Origin: Promethearchaeota archaeon
GTDB lineage: Archaea; Asgardarchaeota; Lokiarchaeia; Sigyniarchaeales; SOKP01
Direction of reading: 5' to 3'
Assembly: GCA_019894975.1 (NCBI GenBank)
Contig: JAGXNO010000059.1
Span: 1-17,871, forward strand
Length of the DNA stretch: 17,871 nt
The position numbers were made by a program, and so were the translations under genes. Below are positions 2,533 to 14,550 of this stretch, piece by piece. The notes beneath the pieces are model-generated. The model was not told where the DNA came from and ran no database searches. It was given only the letters and a program-made list of their open reading frames with translations. Numbering within the stretch: the first letter of the stretch is position 1; each line of letters opens with the position of its first letter.

Positions 2533-2652
2533 TTAGGTAAGTTCCACTTTTTTAGGAAGTCTAATCGTAAAAGTTGCTCCTTTATTATGAACTAATCTTT
2601 CAGGTTTTAAACAATTTTGCCACTGTAAGAATTCTTCTTTGACTAATTTGGC
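2533..2652 (-). pseudogene. Remnant resembling the C-terminus of a histidine kinase ATPase (HATPase_c) domain
   Basis: Open stretch with no in-frame ATG/GTG/TTG upstream of the motif: AKLVKEEFLQWQNCLKPERLVHNKGATFTIRLPKKVELT*. KGATFTIRLP matches the typical G-x-x-F-T-I-x-L-P terminal strand of sensor kinases. Confidence 0.45.
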
Positions 2653-3566
2653 TCAAGAATAAATTTCATGCGGTCTTCACCCAAAATCACTTCTCCATCG
2701 AACACATCAGAAATCCCTTTTAAATAAATAGTTTCAACATTCTTATTTAATAAGGGAGGAGTAATGTGAACGAAAACAAGCTTTTTAACCTGTGCTTCTT
2801 TCGCAAGTTTTGCAGCTGAAACAGGATTCATATGATAGTTCTGAATGTCTGTTAGAATTTTAGCTACCCTTGGATTTAATTTTTCTGCTAATGTTATCAT
2901 ATTATTTAATAAATCAAAAGAAATTGCTTCGCTGAATAAAATATCTGCATTTGTACAGTGTTTCACAAGGTTATCGGTTTTAATCGTGTCACCTGTTATT
3001 GCAACAACTAAACCTTCATATTCTATTCTATATCCAACAGCGGGATTTACGGGAGAATGATCAACCTCAAATGCATATATTTTCACTCCATTTCTATCAA
3101 AGCACAATTCTTTCTCATTATGGTCCTGTATTGTTATAGTTTTACTTATAGGCACCCCTGCTTCAGAAGGTACAATTTCTTCTCCATGGTGGGCAATTCT
3201 ATACCCTGTATCAAATTCGTAAGCCATTTTAAATCCATTAACAACCTTATCTACACCCTTAGGTCCATATACTTCTAATGATTTTGATCTTCCACTCGTC
3301 CATGACATCATATTGGCTTCACCCAGGTCCCCGATGTGATCTGAATGAAAGTGGGTAAGAAAAATACAACTTAATCGTGCTACGGGAAGCCTCATTAAAT
3401 CGACATTTCGATATGTGCCCGGTCCGACATCAAAAAGAATAAATTCTCCGTTAGCAATTACAGCGATACTTGAAGCAACTCTTTTCTCATTGTTAAACGG
3501 GCCCCCAGAACCCACAAGAAAAATATGGAGTTTCCCATCCTCAAGTAATTTTTCCTGACTTAGCAT
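2643..3566 (-). CDS. MBL-fold metallo-hydrolase, RNase Z/ElaC/AtsA-like
   Basis: 307 aa; GSGGP N-terminal motif, DVGPG, THFHSDH (HxHxDH), VDHSP, TGDT, YHM and a C-terminal VH. Confidence 0.92.
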   Translation of the reverse strand: MLSQEKLLEDGKLHIFLVGSGGPFNNEKRVASSIAVIANGEFILFDVGPGTYRNVDLMRLPVARLSCIFLTHFHSDHIGDLGEANMMSWTSGRSKSLEVYGPKGVDKVVNGFKMAYEFDTGYRIAHHGEEIVPSEAGVPISKTITIQDHNEKELCFDRNGVKIYAFEVDHSPVNPAVGYRIEYEGLVVAITGDTIKTDNLVKHCTNADILFSEAISFDLLNNMITLAEKLNPRVAKILTDIQNYHMNPVSAAKLAKEAQVKKLVFVHITPPLLNKNVETIYLKGISDVFDGEVILGEDRMKFILEPN

Positions 3567-6338: not shown

Positions 6339-8807
6339 TTATAATTTTTCCATGAAATCAAACAAATCTGCAGTCTTTGGATATTTTTTTGCTAACTGTT
6401 CCCCCTGTTTTTTCTCAATTGGAGTGGAACTTTGAGTCATCCAAAAAGTTTCAAGACGTTTAAAGAGATTTACGGGTTGTTCAATTTCCCAATCATCTGG
6501 TAGAACGCTATTATAATAACGCGTGCTAAATCGATGCCCAATTAACATAACAAACCCACGATCAGTAGTTGTGCGAAAAATACGTCCCGCAGCCTGAATC
6601 ACTTTCATCATTCCAGGATTCCGATAAGCATATTCAAATCCTTTTTTCCACTTGAATTCAAAATACTTTTTCATTAACTCTTGCTCCATTGAGAATGAGG
6701 GTAGTCCTGGTCCAATTATAAAAGCCCCAATTGCCATATCTCCTATAAAATCAACTCCTTCGCTAAAAATTCCCCCGTGTACTGCCAGTAAAAGATAATT
6801 TTTATCAGAATTTTTCATTTTTTTTAAATATGTTCTACGTTTGCTTTCACTCATTTTACGTTCTTGCACTATGAGTTCAATTGAGAGAGGTTTAGTTTCG
6901 ATTTCACGTTGTACAGCTTTAAGATAAGCAAATGAAGGGAAAAACGCTAAATAATTACCTCTTCTTATATTCACTGCATTACAAATTGTTCTAGCGATTT
7001 GATCATAAGATTCCTGACGGTCATCATATCTTGTAGAATAATTGGGCAAAAGTAGATATAATCGATTTTGTTGGGAAAACGGGGAGTTAAATTGTATTTT
7101 ATTAGCTGAGGTGGGAAATCCAACCATTTTTTGGAAATACTCCATTGGGAATAGTGTTGCTGATTGTATGATTACTGAATGAAATCCCTTAATTTGTTTT
7201 TCGAGTTTTGGTGCTGCTGATTTGCATAATAGTTTGATTTTTCCTTCTTTTATATAAAGTAATTCACTATACTCCGGAGAATCACTTTCTTTTAAGATTG
7301 TGGAGAACTGACGTAAGTTTAACGCAAATTCTATGACTTTATTCTTCCCTCCAGGTTGAAATCCTTGTTGTGAAGTAAATGATTTAACATAAGAGATAAT
7401 AAATTGATCACAATTTTTCGTCATTTCTCGGAAAAATTTCTTATCAAATTTTACTAAAACTGGTTTTTTAATTCCCGCCTCGGGATATTGGTTGATTAAA
7501 TCCATGATATAGTGTGTAAGTTGATCGTAAATGGTAAGACCATTCTTCTCAATAGATTTTGGTATATGTAATGATTGTAAGTATTGAGTAGTATCAGTGA
7601 GAGACTTCAGGGTTATTTCTGGAGAATAATAGGTCATCGCTCGGAAGGGAAGATTGTGAGCCTCATCCACAATCAATATGATATCATTATAAGGTTGGTC
7701 AAAAAATCGTTTGAGTTTAATAAATGGATGAAATACATAATTATAATCCCCCACGATTACATCACAATGGAGTGAACAATCCAGAGAAATTTCAAAGGGG
7801 CAGACAGTATGAGTTTTTGCTATTTTACGAATATATCGAGCATCAATAACCTGCTTAGTGAGAATTTCGGAAACGATCTTATCTATTGATACTTTCTCAT
7901 AATTATTGAGGTATGGACATACTGATTTCTCACAGATAAACGCACTATTTATACACATTTTTTCCTTTGCGGTGAGTATAATCGAATTAAATTTCGCTTT
8001 CTTTTTAGAAAATATTCGTAAGGTCTCCCGATAGATATGCTGTTGAGTGGTTTTAGAAGTAATAACGAAAACTCGCTTATTTTTCTTTAAAGCATATTCT
8101 AGGGCAGGATATAAAGTTCCAACGGTCTTCCCTAATCCTGACGGAGCCAAGACCATTAACCGTTCTCGTTTTTGAATGGATTGGAAAGTCATTTGAACGA
8201 TCTCTTGTTGATGAGGACGGTATTTCTCAAAGGGGAATACTAATGTTTTTGCTCGATTTCTTTGCTCTGCTTTCAATTTTTGTTCTCGTTCCCAAGAGGT
8301 TAAAATAATCCCACATTGTTTTTCAATATAAGCAGAGAGATCTTGAGGTGGAACATCGATAATTTTGGATTTTTCGGTATAGATATCAATTAGTACGAGC
8401 CGACACTGAATGGTTTTCTGTAATTGGAGAAAATAGTGCCCATACAGCAACAACTGCAAACGATACTCTTCAGCACTTTGAGATTCAAGTGAAAAATCTT
8501 CAAGATTAGAAATTGACTTAATTTCTTCTATAATTAAGGTTCCTTTCTTCTCATAGATGATATCAGCACGTCCCGAAATGATAAAACTCCACCCTCGAAC
8601 TTCTGTTTGAAGTTTTACCAGGACCTCGCGTTGAAAGGATTTTTCGGTTTTCTTTCGACTTTCTTGGAATGTTTGATGTACTTCAGTTCCTTTTGAGCCT
8701 CGAATACGTAATGGTATCGCAGAAGTATAGGATCTTCTATCAGATGAGGCGACAACAACATCTTTTACTGAAACGTGAAACTCCTTTTGCTCCTGAAGAA
8801 TTTTCAA
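6339..8807 (-). CDS. Fusion of an N-terminal RecB-like PD-(D/E)XK nuclease and an Fe-S XPD/Rad3/DinG-family SF2 DNA helicase
   Basis: 822 aa, TTG start. Nuclease motifs: GTEVH, E, GRAD, EEIK, QLLLY. Helicase motifs: Q-motif YRPHQ, Walker A APSGLGKT, Fe-S cysteines CINSAFICEKSVC...CPFE, DYNY, DEAH, SAT, FFPSF, SEGVDF, QAAGRIFR. Confidence 0.93.
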   Translation of the reverse strand: MKILQEQKEFHVSVKDVVVASSDRRSYTSAIPLRIRGSKGTEVHQTFQESRKKTEKSFQREVLVKLQTEVRGWSFIISGRADIIYEKKGTLIIEEIKSISNLEDFSLESQSAEEYRLQLLLYGHYFLQLQKTIQCRLVLIDIYTEKSKIIDVPPQDLSAYIEKQCGIILTSWEREQKLKAEQRNRAKTLVFPFEKYRPHQQEIVQMTFQSIQKRERLMVLAPSGLGKTVGTLYPALEYALKKNKRVFVITSKTTQQHIYRETLRIFSKKKAKFNSIILTAKEKMCINSAFICEKSVCPYLNNYEKVSIDKIVSEILTKQVIDARYIRKIAKTHTVCPFEISLDCSLHCDVIVGDYNYVFHPFIKLKRFFDQPYNDIILIVDEAHNLPFRAMTYYSPEITLKSLTDTTQYLQSLHIPKSIEKNGLTIYDQLTHYIMDLINQYPEAGIKKPVLVKFDKKFFREMTKNCDQFIISYVKSFTSQQGFQPGGKNKVIEFALNLRQFSTILKESDSPEYSELLYIKEGKIKLLCKSAAPKLEKQIKGFHSVIIQSATLFPMEYFQKMVGFPTSANKIQFNSPFSQQNRLYLLLPNYSTRYDDRQESYDQIARTICNAVNIRRGNYLAFFPSFAYLKAVQREIETKPLSIELIVQERKMSESKRRTYLKKMKNSDKNYLLLAVHGGIFSEGVDFIGDMAIGAFIIGPGLPSFSMEQELMKKYFEFKWKKGFEYAYRNPGMMKVIQAAGRIFRTTTDRGFVMLIGHRFSTRYYNSVLPDDWEIEQPVNLFKRLETFWMTQSSTPIEKKQGEQLAKKYPKTADLFDFMEKL

Positions 8808-8989
8808 TTTTATTGATCACTTGCACAACTAAACTTATCTCTTGTATTAAAAAACAACCCCTTAATGATATTTTAAATTATTAAAGAGAAATTATGAACA
8901 CTGGATTTTTGATAATTGAATAATATTTTAAATAGTGCGATGTCAAATATATTAATAATCCAATTAATCGTGAAAATCTGTGAGATAAT

Positions 8990-10366
8990 TTGAAATCTAA
9001 ACCAATTAGAATAAGTTTTATGCTGGTTTTCCTGTTCATCTTGATAAATGCTAACCCTAACCATTTAATAAATGAGGTAAAGAACAACGATCTAAATTTA
9101 AAGAGTTTCAAAATTGCACTTCAAACATCAGAAGTAGGAGAAGATGTAAATGTTACACTACACCAATCTTATTTAAGCACTGCTACTATTGAACTTGTTA
9201 ACTTCACTGAATCAAATACCGTTATTTTACCATGTCCAACTGAAGTTACCTTTAATTCAAGTTATACTGAATTTTTAATAGAAGATATTTATGCTCCAAA
9301 TAAGACTTTGATAATTGAAGATGAGGAAATTCAAGTTAATAAACATGAGTTGTTAATATTTCCACGATATGCATCATTTCAAGTCAAAGGAAGTTGTTAT
9401 CTTGAAAATGTCTCAGTATTGATAAGTGAAGATTCAACAGGAGATCAAGATTTCTTTTTAGATGTGTATAACGCTACGCTCTCAGATGGTTATGTTAAAT
9501 ATAACACATCTATTGCTCCAACATCAAAGACTTTATACAATATTAACCATTCAACCATGGGTTGGGAAGACATTACAAATTGGCATTTTCAACTCAATAT
9601 AGAAAATACCTATAATAATACTTTCTTCATAAAAGTTTGGTGCCAATCTAGCCAGCAAGGATATTGGCACTATGGAAGTAATGGAGTCTACGATAGTGTC
9701 ATTTGGAGAGATTTTGGTTCCTTCCCAGAACTCACTTCTAATGATCTGGGCTTAAAACTGGATTTTATAATTTTAGATAATACGCCTACTCCCTCAGAAA
9801 TTAATTTAAGAATAAACAATACTATCGTAAATGATAATGATGATGAAAATCAGGGATCTTGGGTAAGTACCAAAAAATATACAAATCCCAGTGGGAATAT
9901 AGAGTTTGAATTATCGGCAGACTGGTGGGATGTAGCTTGTAATATCACTAGGGCACAAGTTAATTACACCAAAACAGATTTGAAAGCAAATACCAATTAT
10001 GAGATTCCTGAACCCGATTTAGTTATCTGGAATGCTTCTATCAACGAAATTATTGATAGTTTCGATGCAAGAATTAATGTGTATAATTATATTCAATTTA
10101 CTATTTCATCAAATTGGTCTGCAATCAAAGCGTTCAATGGGAGCATTGAAATACTAGATATTTTCTCTGGACCAGCAATTAATAGCTATAGAGATGTTTC
10201 TATATTCGGTGCGGGAAACGGTGCAGATTGGTACCTAACAGCAGTTATAGATAATCGCATACCAGGTAACGGTGGAGAAGCTATTCCATTTGGGAATTAT
10301 TTCTTGCTTTTCACAACCGTAGCTATATTATCTTTGATCTATTTCATGAAAAGAAAAAAAGTTTAA
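8990..10366 (+). CDS. Putative cell-surface glycoprotein with a Loki-CTERM-like C-terminal anchor
   Basis: 458 aa, TTG start; basic-then-hydrophobic N-terminal signal, about 15 N-x-S/T sequons, and C-terminus GGEAIPFGNYFLLFTTVAILSLIYFMKRKKV (IP motif, TM helix, basic tail). Confidence 0.85.
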   Translation: MKSKPIRISFMLVFLFILINANPNHLINEVKNNDLNLKSFKIALQTSEVGEDVNVTLHQSYLSTATIELVNFTESNTVILPCPTEVTFNSSYTEFLIEDIYAPNKTLIIEDEEIQVNKHELLIFPRYASFQVKGSCYLENVSVLISEDSTGDQDFFLDVYNATLSDGYVKYNTSIAPTSKTLYNINHSTMGWEDITNWHFQLNIENTYNNTFFIKVWCQSSQQGYWHYGSNGVYDSVIWRDFGSFPELTSNDLGLKLDFIILDNTPTPSEINLRINNTIVNDNDDENQGSWVSTKKYTNPSGNIEFELSADWWDVACNITRAQVNYTKTDLKANTNYEIPEPDLVIWNASINEIIDSFDARINVYNYIQFTISSNWSAIKAFNGSIEILDIFSGPAINSYRDVSIFGAGNGADWYLTAVIDNRIPGNGGEAIPFGNYFLLFTTVAILSLIYFMKRKKV

Positions 10367-10422: not shown

Positions 10423-11364
10423 TTAAGGAGTCCATGGAACTTCAAAGGAAATATTTAAATCTATAAAAATTCCCGCATATAACGTTGAAAAGGATATTTT
10501 AAATTCCAATGTAGCAGCCGAAGCATTTAGTGCTGCAAGAAAAGAATTATCAATATCCACAGTAATATTGTTATTTGGCTGTGAACTAAAGGAGTGAATT
10601 GTACCATAATCGCTGTTTAAGCTCTCCCCAATTTTGACACTAGGGTCAGCTGATGCATTATAGATATAAAAATTCATTGTAAGATCATAAATTGCATAAA
10701 TTCCTTGATTGTCTACATCAAACGTCATTGTAATATTAAAAGTGTCATCAGCAGTTGAAGGAGTTCCTTTCCAGTCATAATTAGGATAAAATGTATCATG
10801 AACGTCAAACCCAAGATTCATTCCACTATACACTAATGATCCAAAGTATCCTGCTATACCTAAACCCATTATAGTCCCAAAGATTTTAAACAGCATGCTG
10901 AGTTTAAATTGTTTTCTCATGTTTACATTGTATTCTTTCTTATTACGAAGTTCTAAGGCTTCAACTAAATACTGTAAGGCTCTGATTCCTGATGATGCTA
11001 ATAAGAGCCACGCAATTAGTTGTAAACCTAAAAGCACCTGTATCATTGGAAGGTCAATTCTATAAGTTCCTAAAGCGACACCAGGAGTGAATCCTCCAAA
11101 CATATAAAACAAGTAAATACCAGAGTAAATAACAGCCCCAAAAGCTACTAAACGATTTGCTGGAGTATCTTTGGGAAATAAGTGTCTTGCCATTGAAATG
11201 ACAACTCCAATAATTCCAAATATTATAATTGCAGTTTTAAATGCTGCACTAAACGTCATAATATTATATACCTGAAGAACTTCGAACAGAACTAATGGTA
11301 CTACGATGTAAAAGAGTGCACTGAGTGCCCCATACAATATCATTTTTCCTATTTGTACTTCCAT
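10423..11364 (-). CDS. Hypothetical membrane protein: about 5 TM plus a C-terminal extracytoplasmic beta-rich (LEA_2/WHy-like) domain
   Basis: 313 aa; four TM helices, a basic linker, a fifth TM, then a polar beta-strand-patterned domain (FNITMTFDVDNQGIYAIYDLTMNFYIYN) with sequons. The domain call is tentative. Confidence 0.8.
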   Translation of the reverse strand: MEVQIGKMILYGALSALFYIVVPLVLFEVLQVYNIMTFSAAFKTAIIIFGIIGVVISMARHLFPKDTPANRLVAFGAVIYSGIYLFYMFGGFTPGVALGTYRIDLPMIQVLLGLQLIAWLLLASSGIRALQYLVEALELRNKKEYNVNMRKQFKLSMLFKIFGTIMGLGIAGYFGSLVYSGMNLGFDVHDTFYPNYDWKGTPSTADDTFNITMTFDVDNQGIYAIYDLTMNFYIYNASADPSVKIGESLNSDYGTIHSFSSQPNNNITVDIDNSFLAALNASAATLEFKISFSTLYAGIFIDLNISFEVPWTP

Positions 11365-11765: not shown

Positions 11766-12260
11766 ATGAGAAAAAAGACGCATAGGAATGAAGAGATTGT
11801 ATATGAAGAATGGGTTCCCGCTGGTGGAGTTGTAAGAAGTGTAATGCTAATTGTATTTATATTGATAATTTCCATCGTTATTATAGTTATAACTTTCATG
11901 CCCGAAGATTTGATGTTTATTGGCATAATATTTGGCGCTGTGAGTCTTTTTATATTGCTTTTATATAGGAATTTCAGAGGACTCAGGATTTTCATTACCA
12001 GACATCAGATTGAGGTAGATTATGGGATATTCAACCACAAAAAAATCCCAGTACAAAAAATAACTGGATGTGAAGAAACAAAAACCAACTTTAGAAGATA
12101 TGGAGGAATAGGGATTCGATTGGGTTGGGATGGTTCATGGGCTTATAGCACAGATTTCGGAGAAGCAGTAAAAATAATCTTGCTAGAGGGTAGACCATTT
12201 GTTTTTTCTACGAGAAATTCGCAAAAAATATGCAAACTAATAAACGAATTTACAAATTAA
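11766..12260 (+). CDS. Membrane-anchored protein with a probable bacterial PH-like domain (DUF6141/DUF3093-like)
   Basis: 164 aa; two N-terminal TM helices, then a soluble domain with KIPVQKI, YGGIGIR, AVKIIL and FVFSTRNSQKI, a pattern recognised from bPH-clan membrane proteins. Confidence 0.75.
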   Translation: MRKKTHRNEEIVYEEWVPAGGVVRSVMLIVFILIISIVIIVITFMPEDLMFIGIIFGAVSLFILLLYRNFRGLRIFITRHQIEVDYGIFNHKKIPVQKITGCEETKTNFRRYGGIGIRLGWDGSWAYSTDFGEAVKIILLEGRPFVFSTRNSQKICKLINEFTN

Positions 12261-12317: not shown

Positions 12318-12971
12318 ATGGTTCAAATCACAGAAAATGGTAAAGTATATATAAAGATCCTCTATTGGGGGATGGCGGCATCAGGAAAAACAACAATTGT
12401 GGATTCGCTTTACAGATTAACAAATGAAAGCGAAAAAGACATGTTACCTTCTGGGAACCTGACTAAAATTTCAATGGCAAGCGGAGCTACGTTATATTTT
12501 GATAGAGGTACATTCATACCAAAAAACCAGGAAAAACAAGGAAAAATATTTTATCATGTATACACGGTGGCGGGTCAAAAACGATTTTCTCCTTTAAGAA
12601 CGAAGATTTTTACAGGAACAGATGGAGTGATCTTCACTGTCGACTCTCAAACCCGTTTTTTCGAAGATAATACCGAATCCTTGAAAGAGTTGAAAAGTGT
12701 AGCAAAAGGGGCATTAATAAAAGAAATTCCTCTAATAATCATGTTAAATAAGCAAGATCTTAAAGAAGTTATTGGAATCGAAGATTTTAAGCAGGTCTTA
12801 ATAAACGAAAAACTCTGGTATCCCCCCAATCATGAATTATATCTTAAGAATCCCATTATTTATAAAACCTGTGCATTGTATGACCAAAGGATGAATCTTT
12901 ATCGTAGCTTTTCTGAATGTGTTAGAAGAATTGGAGCTCATCGAAATAAAACGGGTACAACACTATCTTAA
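12318..12971 (+). CDS. MglA-like small GTPase (Arf/Ras superfamily)
   Basis: 217 aa; KILYWGMAASGKTT (G1), ATLYFD (G2; MglA has RTLFFD), YTVAGQ (G3; MglA has YTVPGQ), DGVIFTVDSQ, NKQD (G4), TCA (G5). SD-like GGTGGT upstream. Confidence 0.9.
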   Translation: MVQITENGKVYIKILYWGMAASGKTTIVDSLYRLTNESEKDMLPSGNLTKISMASGATLYFDRGTFIPKNQEKQGKIFYHVYTVAGQKRFSPLRTKIFTGTDGVIFTVDSQTRFFEDNTESLKELKSVAKGALIKEIPLIIMLNKQDLKEVIGIEDFKQVLINEKLWYPPNHELYLKNPIIYKTCALYDQRMNLYRSFSECVRRIGAHRNKTGTTLS

Positions 12972-14022: not shown

Positions 14023-14550
14023 ATGGAGACTCATAAAGTAATAATTGTCGGTCCTAGTGCGGTTGGAAAAACGAGTTTGCTAAACCGATTTGTACATGAC
14101 GAATTTGTTTTAAGATATAAAATGACTATAGGGGTCGACTTTTTAACTAAGATTATTGAATATCAACCATCAAAATCTGTCAAGCTCCATATTTGGGATA
14201 TTGGAGGCCAAGAAAGATTTAAATTTTTACATCGTAGCTTCTATGACGGTGCAGCAGGGGCATTGATTTTGTTTGATCTTTCAAGACAACATACGTTTTC
14301 AAGTATGAAAACTTGGCTTTCAGAAATGCGTAATATAATGGATAAAGAAATACCTAAAGTTATAATTGGGAATAAAATTGATTTAATTCCTGAAATTGGG
14401 CGAATTATTGAGAAATCTGAGGTTGAAAATTACGCAAAAAGTGAAAATTGTTTTTACATGGAAACATCAGCTAAAACAGGTGAAAATGTCGAAAAAGCTT
14501 TCTTAGAACTTACACAATGCATGTTAGGTAATGGAAAAACAAAAATCTGA
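14023..14550 (+). CDS. Rab-like small GTPase (eukaryotic signature protein)
   Basis: 175 aa; G1 GPSAVGKTS, G2 YKMTIGVDF, G3 WDIGGQE, G4 GNKID, G5 ETSAK; RabF-like motifs IGVDF, KLHIW, RFKFL, FYDGA and LFDLS. Confidence 0.95.
   Translation: METHKVIIVGPSAVGKTSLLNRFVHDEFVLRYKMTIGVDFLTKIIEYQPSKSVKLHIWDIGGQERFKFLHRSFYDGAAGALILFDLSRQHTFSSMKTWLSEMRNIMDKEIPKVIIGNKIDLIPEIGRIIEKSEVENYAKSENCFYMETSAKTGENVEKAFLELTQCMLGNGKTKI

Follow-up and report, generated by a model that had tools for sequence, protein, structure and literature searches.

The closest described relatives of the protein analysed here form the EndoDinG family, so named in a 2025 review (PMC11981726), whose founding characterised member, Finegoldia magna DinG (FmaDinG), was reported in 2026 with structure and assays (PMC13650095). 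As described there, FmaDinG is a Mn2+-preferring single-stranded DNA (ssDNA) endonuclease as well as a 5'-3' helicase; it digests into duplex DNA in an ATP-dependent manner, an activity abolished in the ATPase-dead mutant D378A; its nuclease domain possesses a gate (residues 18-28); and the substitutions H40A, E54A, R73A, D75A, E88A and K90A nearly abolish the nuclease. The solved structure, 9KQH, contains the D75A protein with ssDNA and ADPNP (PMC13650095). The available text of the characterisation paper names bacterial orders only (PMC13650095), and that of the review does not contain the word 'Asgard' and uses 'archaea' a single time, among its references (PMC11981726); no description of an archaeal XPD-nuclease fusion was found in the literature, although supplementary taxon tables of both EndoDinG papers could list some. 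Here we describe a gene at positions 6339-8807 of a 17,871-nucleotide stretch of DNA from a lokiarchaeal genome (contig JAGXNO010000059.1, assembly GCA_019894975.1, hereafter the window), the product of which is an archaeal member of the EndoDinG family. An earlier reading of the sequence alone had taken it for a candidate 'undescribed system', a claim that has to be given up, the family having already been named (PMC11981726), solved and assayed (PMC13650095). What is new here is the Asgard clade of the family, its accessory status beside a canonical XPD, a bacterial-type acquisition in a second group of Asgard archaea, and a candidate clamp-binding tail.

All the motifs listed by the sequence-only reading are present in the single 822-amino-acid (aa) open reading frame (ORF): GTEVH (40-44), E61, GRAD (79-82), EEIK (94-97) and QLLLY (118-122) in the nuclease, and in the helicase, besides those set out in Table 1, the Q-motif region (R197/Q200) and motif VI (QAAGRIFR, 738-745). 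The domain boundary that it had placed near residue 180 agrees with a nuclease domain of about 155 residues followed by a linker helix. Pfam models recognised the helicase readily (DEAD_2, 4.4e-14; Helicase_C_2, 2.2e-36), and PDDEXK_1 matched residues 47-160 just below its 22-bit cut-off (E 4.3e-4, 20.7 bits). The ORF opens with TTG, three codons after an in-frame TGA, and its first methionine is residue 205, so that TTG or another nearby start is needed; because homologues align from residue 1 and residues 2-13 already form structured strands in the AlphaFold2 (AF2) model, the TTG start is credible.

Table 1. The nuclease-helicase gene, its parts, and the two small GTPase genes of the window (window coordinates).
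Feature	Position	Strand	Basis or remark
EndoDinG-type nuclease-helicase ORF, 822 aa + stop	6339..8807	(-)	whole ORF
PD-(D/E)XK (Cas4/RecB-like) nuclease domain, N-terminal, aa 1-155	8343..8807	(-)	Pfam, fold search; without an Fe-S cysteine set of its own
Catalytic core H44, E61, R80, D82, E95, K97	8517..8678	(-)	FmaDinG alignment, conservation
QxxxY motif Q118-Y122, as in RecB/Cas4-type nucleases	8442..8456	(-)	sequence, conservation
Long linker helix aa 158-188, nuclease to motor domain 1	8244..8336	(-)	AF2 models
XPD-type superfamily 2 (SF2) helicase core, aa 190-775: motor domains 1 and 2, iron-sulphur (Fe-S) and Arch insertions	6483..8240	(-)	Pfam, NCBIfam, PDB, Foldseek
Walker A, APSGLGKT, aa 221-228	8124..8147	(-)	sequence, conservation
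Fe-S cluster region C285, C292, C297, C336	7800..7955	(-)	invariant; aligned with FmaDinG cysteines
DEAH box, aa 381-384; D381 = FmaDinG D378 (ATPase-dead mutant site)	7656..7667	(-)	alignment, conservation
C-terminal helix with family-wide FW pair F788, W789; beyond the FmaDinG end	6438..6467	(-)	alignment, AF2
Disordered basic tail of variable length, aa 794-822, pLDDT below 50	6342..6428	(-)	AF2, alignments
Conserved C-terminal motif K811-M819 (K-TADLFDFM), PIP-box-like without Q; candidate PCNA-docking peptide	6351..6377	(-)	conservation, archaeal PIP rules, FEN1 tail
Arf-like and Ras-family small GTPases, typical of Asgard archaea	12318-12971, 14023-14550	(+)	

Membership of the EndoDinG family was evident from sequence and structure alike. 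FmaDinG (9KQH_A) was the best match in a sequence search of the PDB (E 3e-92, query residues 8-774 against chain residues 3-748, ~28% identity) and in a Foldseek search with the predicted structure (E 8.8e-58, TM 0.71/0.78 over 786 columns); the ESM Atlas gave bacterial helicase clusters only. The two proteins share the same domain order (nuclease, linker, motor domain 1 with Fe-S and Arch insertions, motor domain 2), and their catalytic, Fe-S, ATPase and DNA-contact residues are identical: H40, E54, R73, D75, E88 and K90 of FmaDinG align with H44, E61, R80, D82, E95 and K97, its ATPase residue D378 with D381, and its DNA-contact residues F698 and R733 with F724 and R759, positions that are conserved family-wide. 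The full-length AF2 model was confident (pLDDT 90, pTM 0.88), as was the model of the N-terminal 190 residues alone (pLDDT 93.7), and a segment of low confidence at residues 21-30 falls where the gate loop of FmaDinG lies (18-28). FmaDinG differs from the Asgard protein in its bacterial host and in lying outside the well-supported clade to which the latter belongs. It also terminates at the equivalent of residue 774, whereas most family members extend, like the Asgard protein, into a further helix with an FW pair; beyond that helix the Asgard protein carries a disordered tail, specific to Loki-type homologues, that ends in a motif resembling a PCNA-interacting peptide (PIP).

Searched against 48,161 chains, the modelled N-terminal domain behaved as the PD-(D/E)XK fold that had been proposed for it, with the N-domain of 9KQH as top match (Z 16.5), followed by the Cas4 proteins SSO0001 (Z 13.8) and 7MI4 (Z 11.3) and, further down, by MGME1 (Z 10.7), RecE, EXO5, lambda exonuclease, AdnAB, Dna2 (Z 8.1), RecB (Z 7.5) and AddA. 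Conservation was assessed in an alignment of 153 sequences, in which the query and a few Asgard homologues were combined with 145 of the best 150 representatives (at 50% identity) from a search of 1.84 billion proteins. The four Fe-S cysteines, GxGKT and DExH were present in 153/153, and the nuclease positions were kept almost as strictly (H44 in 146, E61 in 150, D82 in 151, and E95, K97, Q118 and Y122 in 150 each), the catalytic residues being invariant in the N-domain alignment; conservation on this scale indicates that neither the nuclease nor the helicase motifs are there by chance. We consider it likely that the gene encodes a metal-dependent PD-(D/E)XK ssDNA endonuclease joined to an Fe-S, XPD-type 5'-3' helicase, acting as a stand-alone, accessory genome-maintenance enzyme beside XPD. 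The unwinding and cutting foreseen by the sequence-only reading, and their coupling, would be expected of the Asgard protein by homology with FmaDinG. Its Firmicutes counterparts, to which that reading pointed, are also real: F. magna supplied the solved structure, and most of the best 80 loci found in a scan of a genome collection belong to Bacillota.

Among other helicases, the core stands closest to XPD. After 9KQH, the PDB sequence search listed Thermoplasma XPD (~1e-34), yeast Rad3 (2e-18), CHL1, human XPD, Escherichia coli DinG (5e-9) and FANCJ, and Foldseek gave a similar order, XPD-type chains preceding E. coli DinG, with CasDinG lower still. Curated NCBIfam models (rad3, YoaA, DinG, DnaQ-DinG, Csf4, Cas4) all scored below their cut-offs, those for DinG, YoaA and ExoDinG by a wide interval (NF008729, 88.1 against 598; NF053712, 113.7 against 680; TIGR01407, 89.1 against 547.7). 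Canonical archaeal XPD (Thermoplasma acidophilum 4A15/5H8W; TMt 0.78) has the same Fe-S and Arch insertions and two motor domains but no nuclease domain, whereas 190 residues of nuclease and linker precede the helicase in the Asgard protein. ExoDinG (Staphylococcus aureus DinG) and E. coli DinG/YoaA are likewise XPD-family helicases, and ExoDinG too couples a nuclease to 5'-3' translocation, although its nuclease is a DnaQ-type 3'-5' exonuclease. CasDinG (Csf4 of type IV CRISPR systems) is a DinG/XPD-family helicase with nuclease activity in some variants, but it has a degenerate Fe-S module and csf genes, where the Asgard protein has four cysteines and, in the window, no cas genes. AddAB, AdnAB and RecBCD also feed a RecB-fold nuclease (fold Z 7.4-9.0) from a helicase motor, but they are multi-subunit machines with superfamily 1 motors, whereas this is one SF2 polypeptide. 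The likeness to Dna2 is one of plan: a RecB-type nuclease N-terminal to a 5'-3' helicase, an Fe-S cluster, and action at flaps and ends. The Dna2 helicase is of superfamily 1B, not of the XPD type. Its Fe-S cluster is moreover located in the nuclease (PMC11981726), and Dna2 is an analogue of the Asgard protein, not a fellow member of its family; the Dna2 family PF08696 was not among the protein's Pfam matches up to E 1, nor was it found in the 95%-complete genome, in which NurA was found.

The gene is accessory, as a survey of its distribution makes clear. A match to the protein was counted as EndoDinG-type if its E was below 1e-50 and it included the N-terminus, or if it was a high-identity fragment lying at the end of a contig. 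On this definition 32/201 Asgard genomes possessed the fusion: 3/40 in family f1 (Lokiarchaeia) plus the present genome, 3/3 in f2, 3/7 in f14, 9/10 in f22 and 13/21 in f5. Most genomes gave XPD-level matches only, beginning near query residue 190; in family f7 such matches occurred in 42/43 genomes and the fusion in 0/43. Within the genus, the protein search detected the fusion in 0/10 genomes and a DNA search in 6/24 (G230, G219, G229, G218, G226 and G232, at 76-82% nucleotide identity), giving 6/28 distinct genomes, with 12 of the negatives examined by DNA only. Other window genes were matched by all 24 of the genomes searched by DNA, mostly at ~70-88% identity among the matches listed, and the contig therefore belongs to the genus. 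That the host is an Asgard archaeon, as had been suspected, is borne out by close homologues named Lokiarchaeia or Promethearchaeota and by the Ras- and Arf-family GTPases of the window. Among the sequencing runs listed as containing the sequence, none was of RNA, and those of DNA were mostly metagenomes. The present genome (3.9 Mb, 95% complete, 8.6% contamination) holds a second Helicase_C_2 gene, on contig C131, encoding an XPD of ~650 aa with four cysteines and DECH but no nuclease; it shares only 27% identity with the EndoDinG-type protein, and the distinction from housekeeping XPD drawn by the sequence-only reading thus holds, as does its accessory reading against that of a universal, sole XPD.

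Two side observations concern the integrity of these genes. The C131 XPD (~91065-93043; L001:100-2079) lies in an open frame of 660 codons, of which the first listed start gives 568 aa; there is no ATG, GTG or TTG ahead of Walker A, and the methionine of a relative aligns with an isoleucine codon, pointing to either an unusual start codon or an error in the sequence. Several Asgard EndoDinG copies (G094:C160, G115:C3, G080:C210, G089:C117 and G086:C8) contain an internal TAA or lie in two pieces on one contig, suggesting decay or assembly errors in some genomes.

The scan of the genome collection recovered at least 596 relatives, and the best 80 were all but one bacterial, these 80 loci being mostly from Bacillota, together with Bdellovibrionota, Thermodesulfobacteriota, Myxococcota, Acidobacteriota, Latescibacterota, Melainabacteria, Mycoplasmatota and Aminicenantes. 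Trees were built with FastTree on 112 rows (four loci were left out, three with ORFs under 740 aa plus L077) and, on a subset of 73 rows from which near-duplicates and many Bacillota had been removed, by a quick IQ-TREE run (LG+G4, SH-aLRT only), both rooted on six canonical Asgard XPDs. In both, the window protein fell in an Asgard-only clade (clade A; support 98-99) with f1/Lokiarchaeia, Lokiarchaeum ossiferum, f2/Harpocratesius, f14/Heimdall/Kari, Hermod and f22, while the f5 copies were nested in a Bacillota-dominated clade (support 99), which indicates a separate transfer. Horizontal acquisition, raised as a possibility by the sequence-only reading, is accordingly not indicated for this copy and applies to family f5 instead. 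The base of the family tree is a four-way polytomy with the XPD outgroup: since the deepest branching is not settled, composition heterogeneity was flagged and support is by SH-aLRT only, we claim neither a donor nor an origin. Since the helicase core is nearer to archaeal XPD than to bacterial DinG, the 'bacterial' EndoDinG family as a whole could have arisen in archaea.

The C-terminal tail is the most distinctive part of the lokiarchaeal proteins. Loki-type homologues have a linker of 23-44 aa without conserved positions and then K[TS]xDL[FL]DF, ending 1-5 residues from the C-terminus. Among hits P0002-P0079, of which 76 had a complete C-terminus, the motif was present in 73/76 (65 strict matches and 8 one-residue variants) and absent from three; in alignment A3, D817 was invariant and K811, D814, L815 and F818 were at least 90% conserved. 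In seven Heimdall-type sequences the C-terminal motif is another one, also PIP-like: T[TS]xL[ED][ST]L[LI]. The stretch T-A-D-L-F-D-F-M fits the PIP consensus Qxx[LIVM]xx[FYW][FYWLIVM] in all but the Q, and has a basic flank. The rule given for archaeal PIPs is x-x-x-[LIVM]-x-x-[FYW]-[FYWLIVM], and a PIP without Q but with a basic N-terminal flank binds archaeal PCNA, as demonstrated for Pyrococcus Mre11 (PMC6009593). In the same genome, FEN1 ends in KKTQVSLDDFVKI and RNase HII in NKKITDFF. A predicted complex of the genome's own PCNA (encoded on C107; alignment A2) with tail residues 775-822 (A3) scored 0.24 against a mark of 0.32; it was run without controls and is used neither way. Judged from these motifs, the tail peptide possibly docks the protein on PCNA, a suggestion that we hold tentatively. 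More doubtful again is the fuller picture, in which Asgard archaea would possess an old EndoDinG lineage of their own that in Lokiarchaeia is wired to the clamp through a FEN1-like PIP peptide, giving a PCNA-tethered, Dna2-like enzyme with an XPD-type motor at forks, flaps and ends.

Neighbouring genes were compared across 101 loci (14 clade-A, 8 f5 and 79 bacterial; 1069 ORFs), and no neighbour family was common to the whole gene family. The commonest neighbours were an upstream pair, found in 12/79 and 10/79 bacterial loci, which in the representative L031 (2796-5016) matches TIGR03916, 'putative DNA modification/repair radical SAM', and TIGR03915, 'putative DNA repair protein' (Pfam DUF4130). 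In bacteria of Lachnospiraceae type, EndoDinG lies downstream of this pair (L031 and 9-11 other bacterial loci), and the three genes may constitute a conserved repair operon; adjacency to a putative DNA repair pair at some bacterial loci would lean towards repair. In family f22 an E1-like adenylyltransferase of MoeB/ThiF type follows EndoDinG on the same strand at seven loci (L088-L093, L096) and Orc1/Cdc6 lies two to three genes upstream at six; as they recur within f22 only, both were set aside as lineage synteny.

The window itself offers no partner gene. Its other genes encode a major facilitator superfamily transporter, a glyoxalase, a flavin mononucleotide reductase, a metallo-beta-lactamase (MBL) fold hydrolase, membrane and surface proteins, the two small GTPases, CitMHS and ATP-binding cassette transporters; no tRNA gene was found in it. 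The 458-aa gene (8990-10366 (+)) was tried as a partner and rejected, being a secreted or anchored surface protein that is absent at the same spot in G219 and G230, and so was the 313-aa gene (10423-11364), a multi-pass membrane protein; neither product had a Pfam, NCBIfam or PADLOC match. The 458-aa protein, secreted or C-terminally anchored, is rich in N-x-S/T, and its relatives (32-40% identity) are parts of frames mostly ~1300-2100 aa long in sister genomes. In G219 and G230 the gene for the 313-aa membrane protein and the helicase gene share a strand, the former lying 40-55 bp upstream of the latter. A 164-aa ORF without a Pfam match (11766-12260 (+)) immediately precedes the Arf-like gene, and the MBL-fold hydrolase (2643-3566 (-)) matches anti-Pycsar Apyc1 weakly, its 24 bits (E 3e-5) falling short of the cut-off of 50.

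Several points count against genome maintenance and the clamp link. The activities ascribed to the archaeal members would derive from bacterial FmaDinG, whose own authors call its biological role unknown (PMC13650095). A pattern covering the FEN1 and EndoDinG tails matched only those two proteins among the genome's 2893 ORFs with 150 aa or more, but it was written post hoc, and the generic PIP pattern without Q is common at C-termini (268/2893 ORFs; 19/2893 with Q). The clade-A families f22 and f2 are without the tail motif. Patchy distribution and rearranged neighbourhoods would suit a defence gene too, and the closest GTDB locus, L003 (75% identity), has PADLOC candidate PDC-S70 ORFs on both flanks: L003:5325-5846, 8682-9209 and 9206-9493 comprise PDC-S70 matches (E 2.7e-29 and 1.4e-10) and an ORF resembling the ribbon-helix-helix (RHH)/UPF0175 type, which could be toxin-antitoxin-type modules.

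The strongest alternative is that the protein is a stand-alone anti-virus or anti-plasmid nuclease-helicase which shreds incoming DNA, as single-protein helicase-nucleases or CasDinG-linked systems do. The patchiness of the gene keeps such a role in play, and to this may be added a variable, rearranged locus, with the surface-protein gene inserted adjacent in this genome only, the flanking PDC-S70-like and RHH/UPF0175-like ORFs of L003, the appearance of DdmD and Hna far down the Foldseek list (E ~1e-10 to 1e-11), and a PADLOC match to the typeIV_DinG model PDLC01439 at 1.1e-99. That match is generic, since the plain XPD of the same genome also scores 1.5e-83 on the model. PADLOC matched none of the six window neighbours scanned, and among 150 of 200 Asgard neighbour ORFs it returned generic or partial matches (ThiF on 'E1-E2' models, helix-turn-helix, MotA-like, a weak ATPase) but never a complete system. 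All four Fe-S cysteines are retained, whereas the module of CasDinG is degenerate (PMC13650095); CasDinG is a more distant match to the helicase core than archaeal XPD is; and the putative repair genes at some bacterial loci and the FEN1-like character of the tail point elsewhere. The defence reading, offered beside repair from the sequence alone, has nothing specific in its favour, no flanking defence genes having been found in the scanned neighbours, and is in our estimate unlikely.

Far less probable is a housekeeping XPD, of nucleotide-excision-repair or transcription type, that merely carries an extra domain. JGI labels several homologues 'ERCC-2', the best NCBIfam match is TIGR00604 (rad3), and Thermoplasma XPD is the next-best solved relative; but the rad3 score of 157.6 bits lies under the cut-off of 246.95, a separate canonical XPD is encoded on C131, and family f7 keeps XPD almost throughout with the fusion in none. 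Equally remote is the idea of a protein that acts as a helicase only, its nuclease domain having degenerated into an inactive scaffold: PDDEXK_1 falls just short of threshold and pseudo-nuclease DinG variants such as pExoDinG exist (PMC11981726), but the catalytic residues are all present, 146-151 of 153 representatives retaining them, and the homologous FmaDinG domain is active (PMC13650095). Least credible is a CRISPR-linked protein, either an adaptation nuclease like Cas4 or a CasDinG of type IV systems, as the N-domain fold closest to Cas4 after 9KQH and the weak Cas4 profile matches (TIGR00372, 17.5 bits; PADLOC Cas4 model, about 1e-4) are set against scores far under cut-off (Cas4 17.5 against 65; Csf4 TIGR03117 34 against 400), a nuclease domain without the Cas4 four-cysteine cluster (residues 1-190 contain C135 and C165 only), and a Pfam scan of the window ORFs that found no Cas family, no search for repeats or CRISPR arrays having been made.

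On the genome-maintenance reading, the mechanism would run as follows. The motor domains would load on a 5' single-stranded tail and, driven by ATP, translocate 5'-3', the duplex being split at the Fe-S/Arch wedge; the other, 3'-ended strand would be threaded past the gating loop into the nuclease and cut endonucleolytically. As translocation would feed the strand to the nuclease, resection into duplex would proceed only during ATP hydrolysis. Forks, flaps or broken ends are the most likely substrates, the PIP-like C-terminal peptide may dock the enzyme on PCNA, and the genomic context suggests an accessory maintenance role beside NurA-type resection genes.

EndoDinG has previously been seen as bacterial; with the Asgard clade, the family now reaches the archaea that are related to eukaryotes. 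The combination of that clade, a separate XPD and a tail of clamp-binding type hints at processing coupled to replication or repair rather than at immunity. If the link to PCNA is false, the protein would be an ordinary accessory repair helicase-nuclease; if it is true, Lokiarchaeia would possess an archaeal counterpart to Dna2 in function, with another kind of motor.

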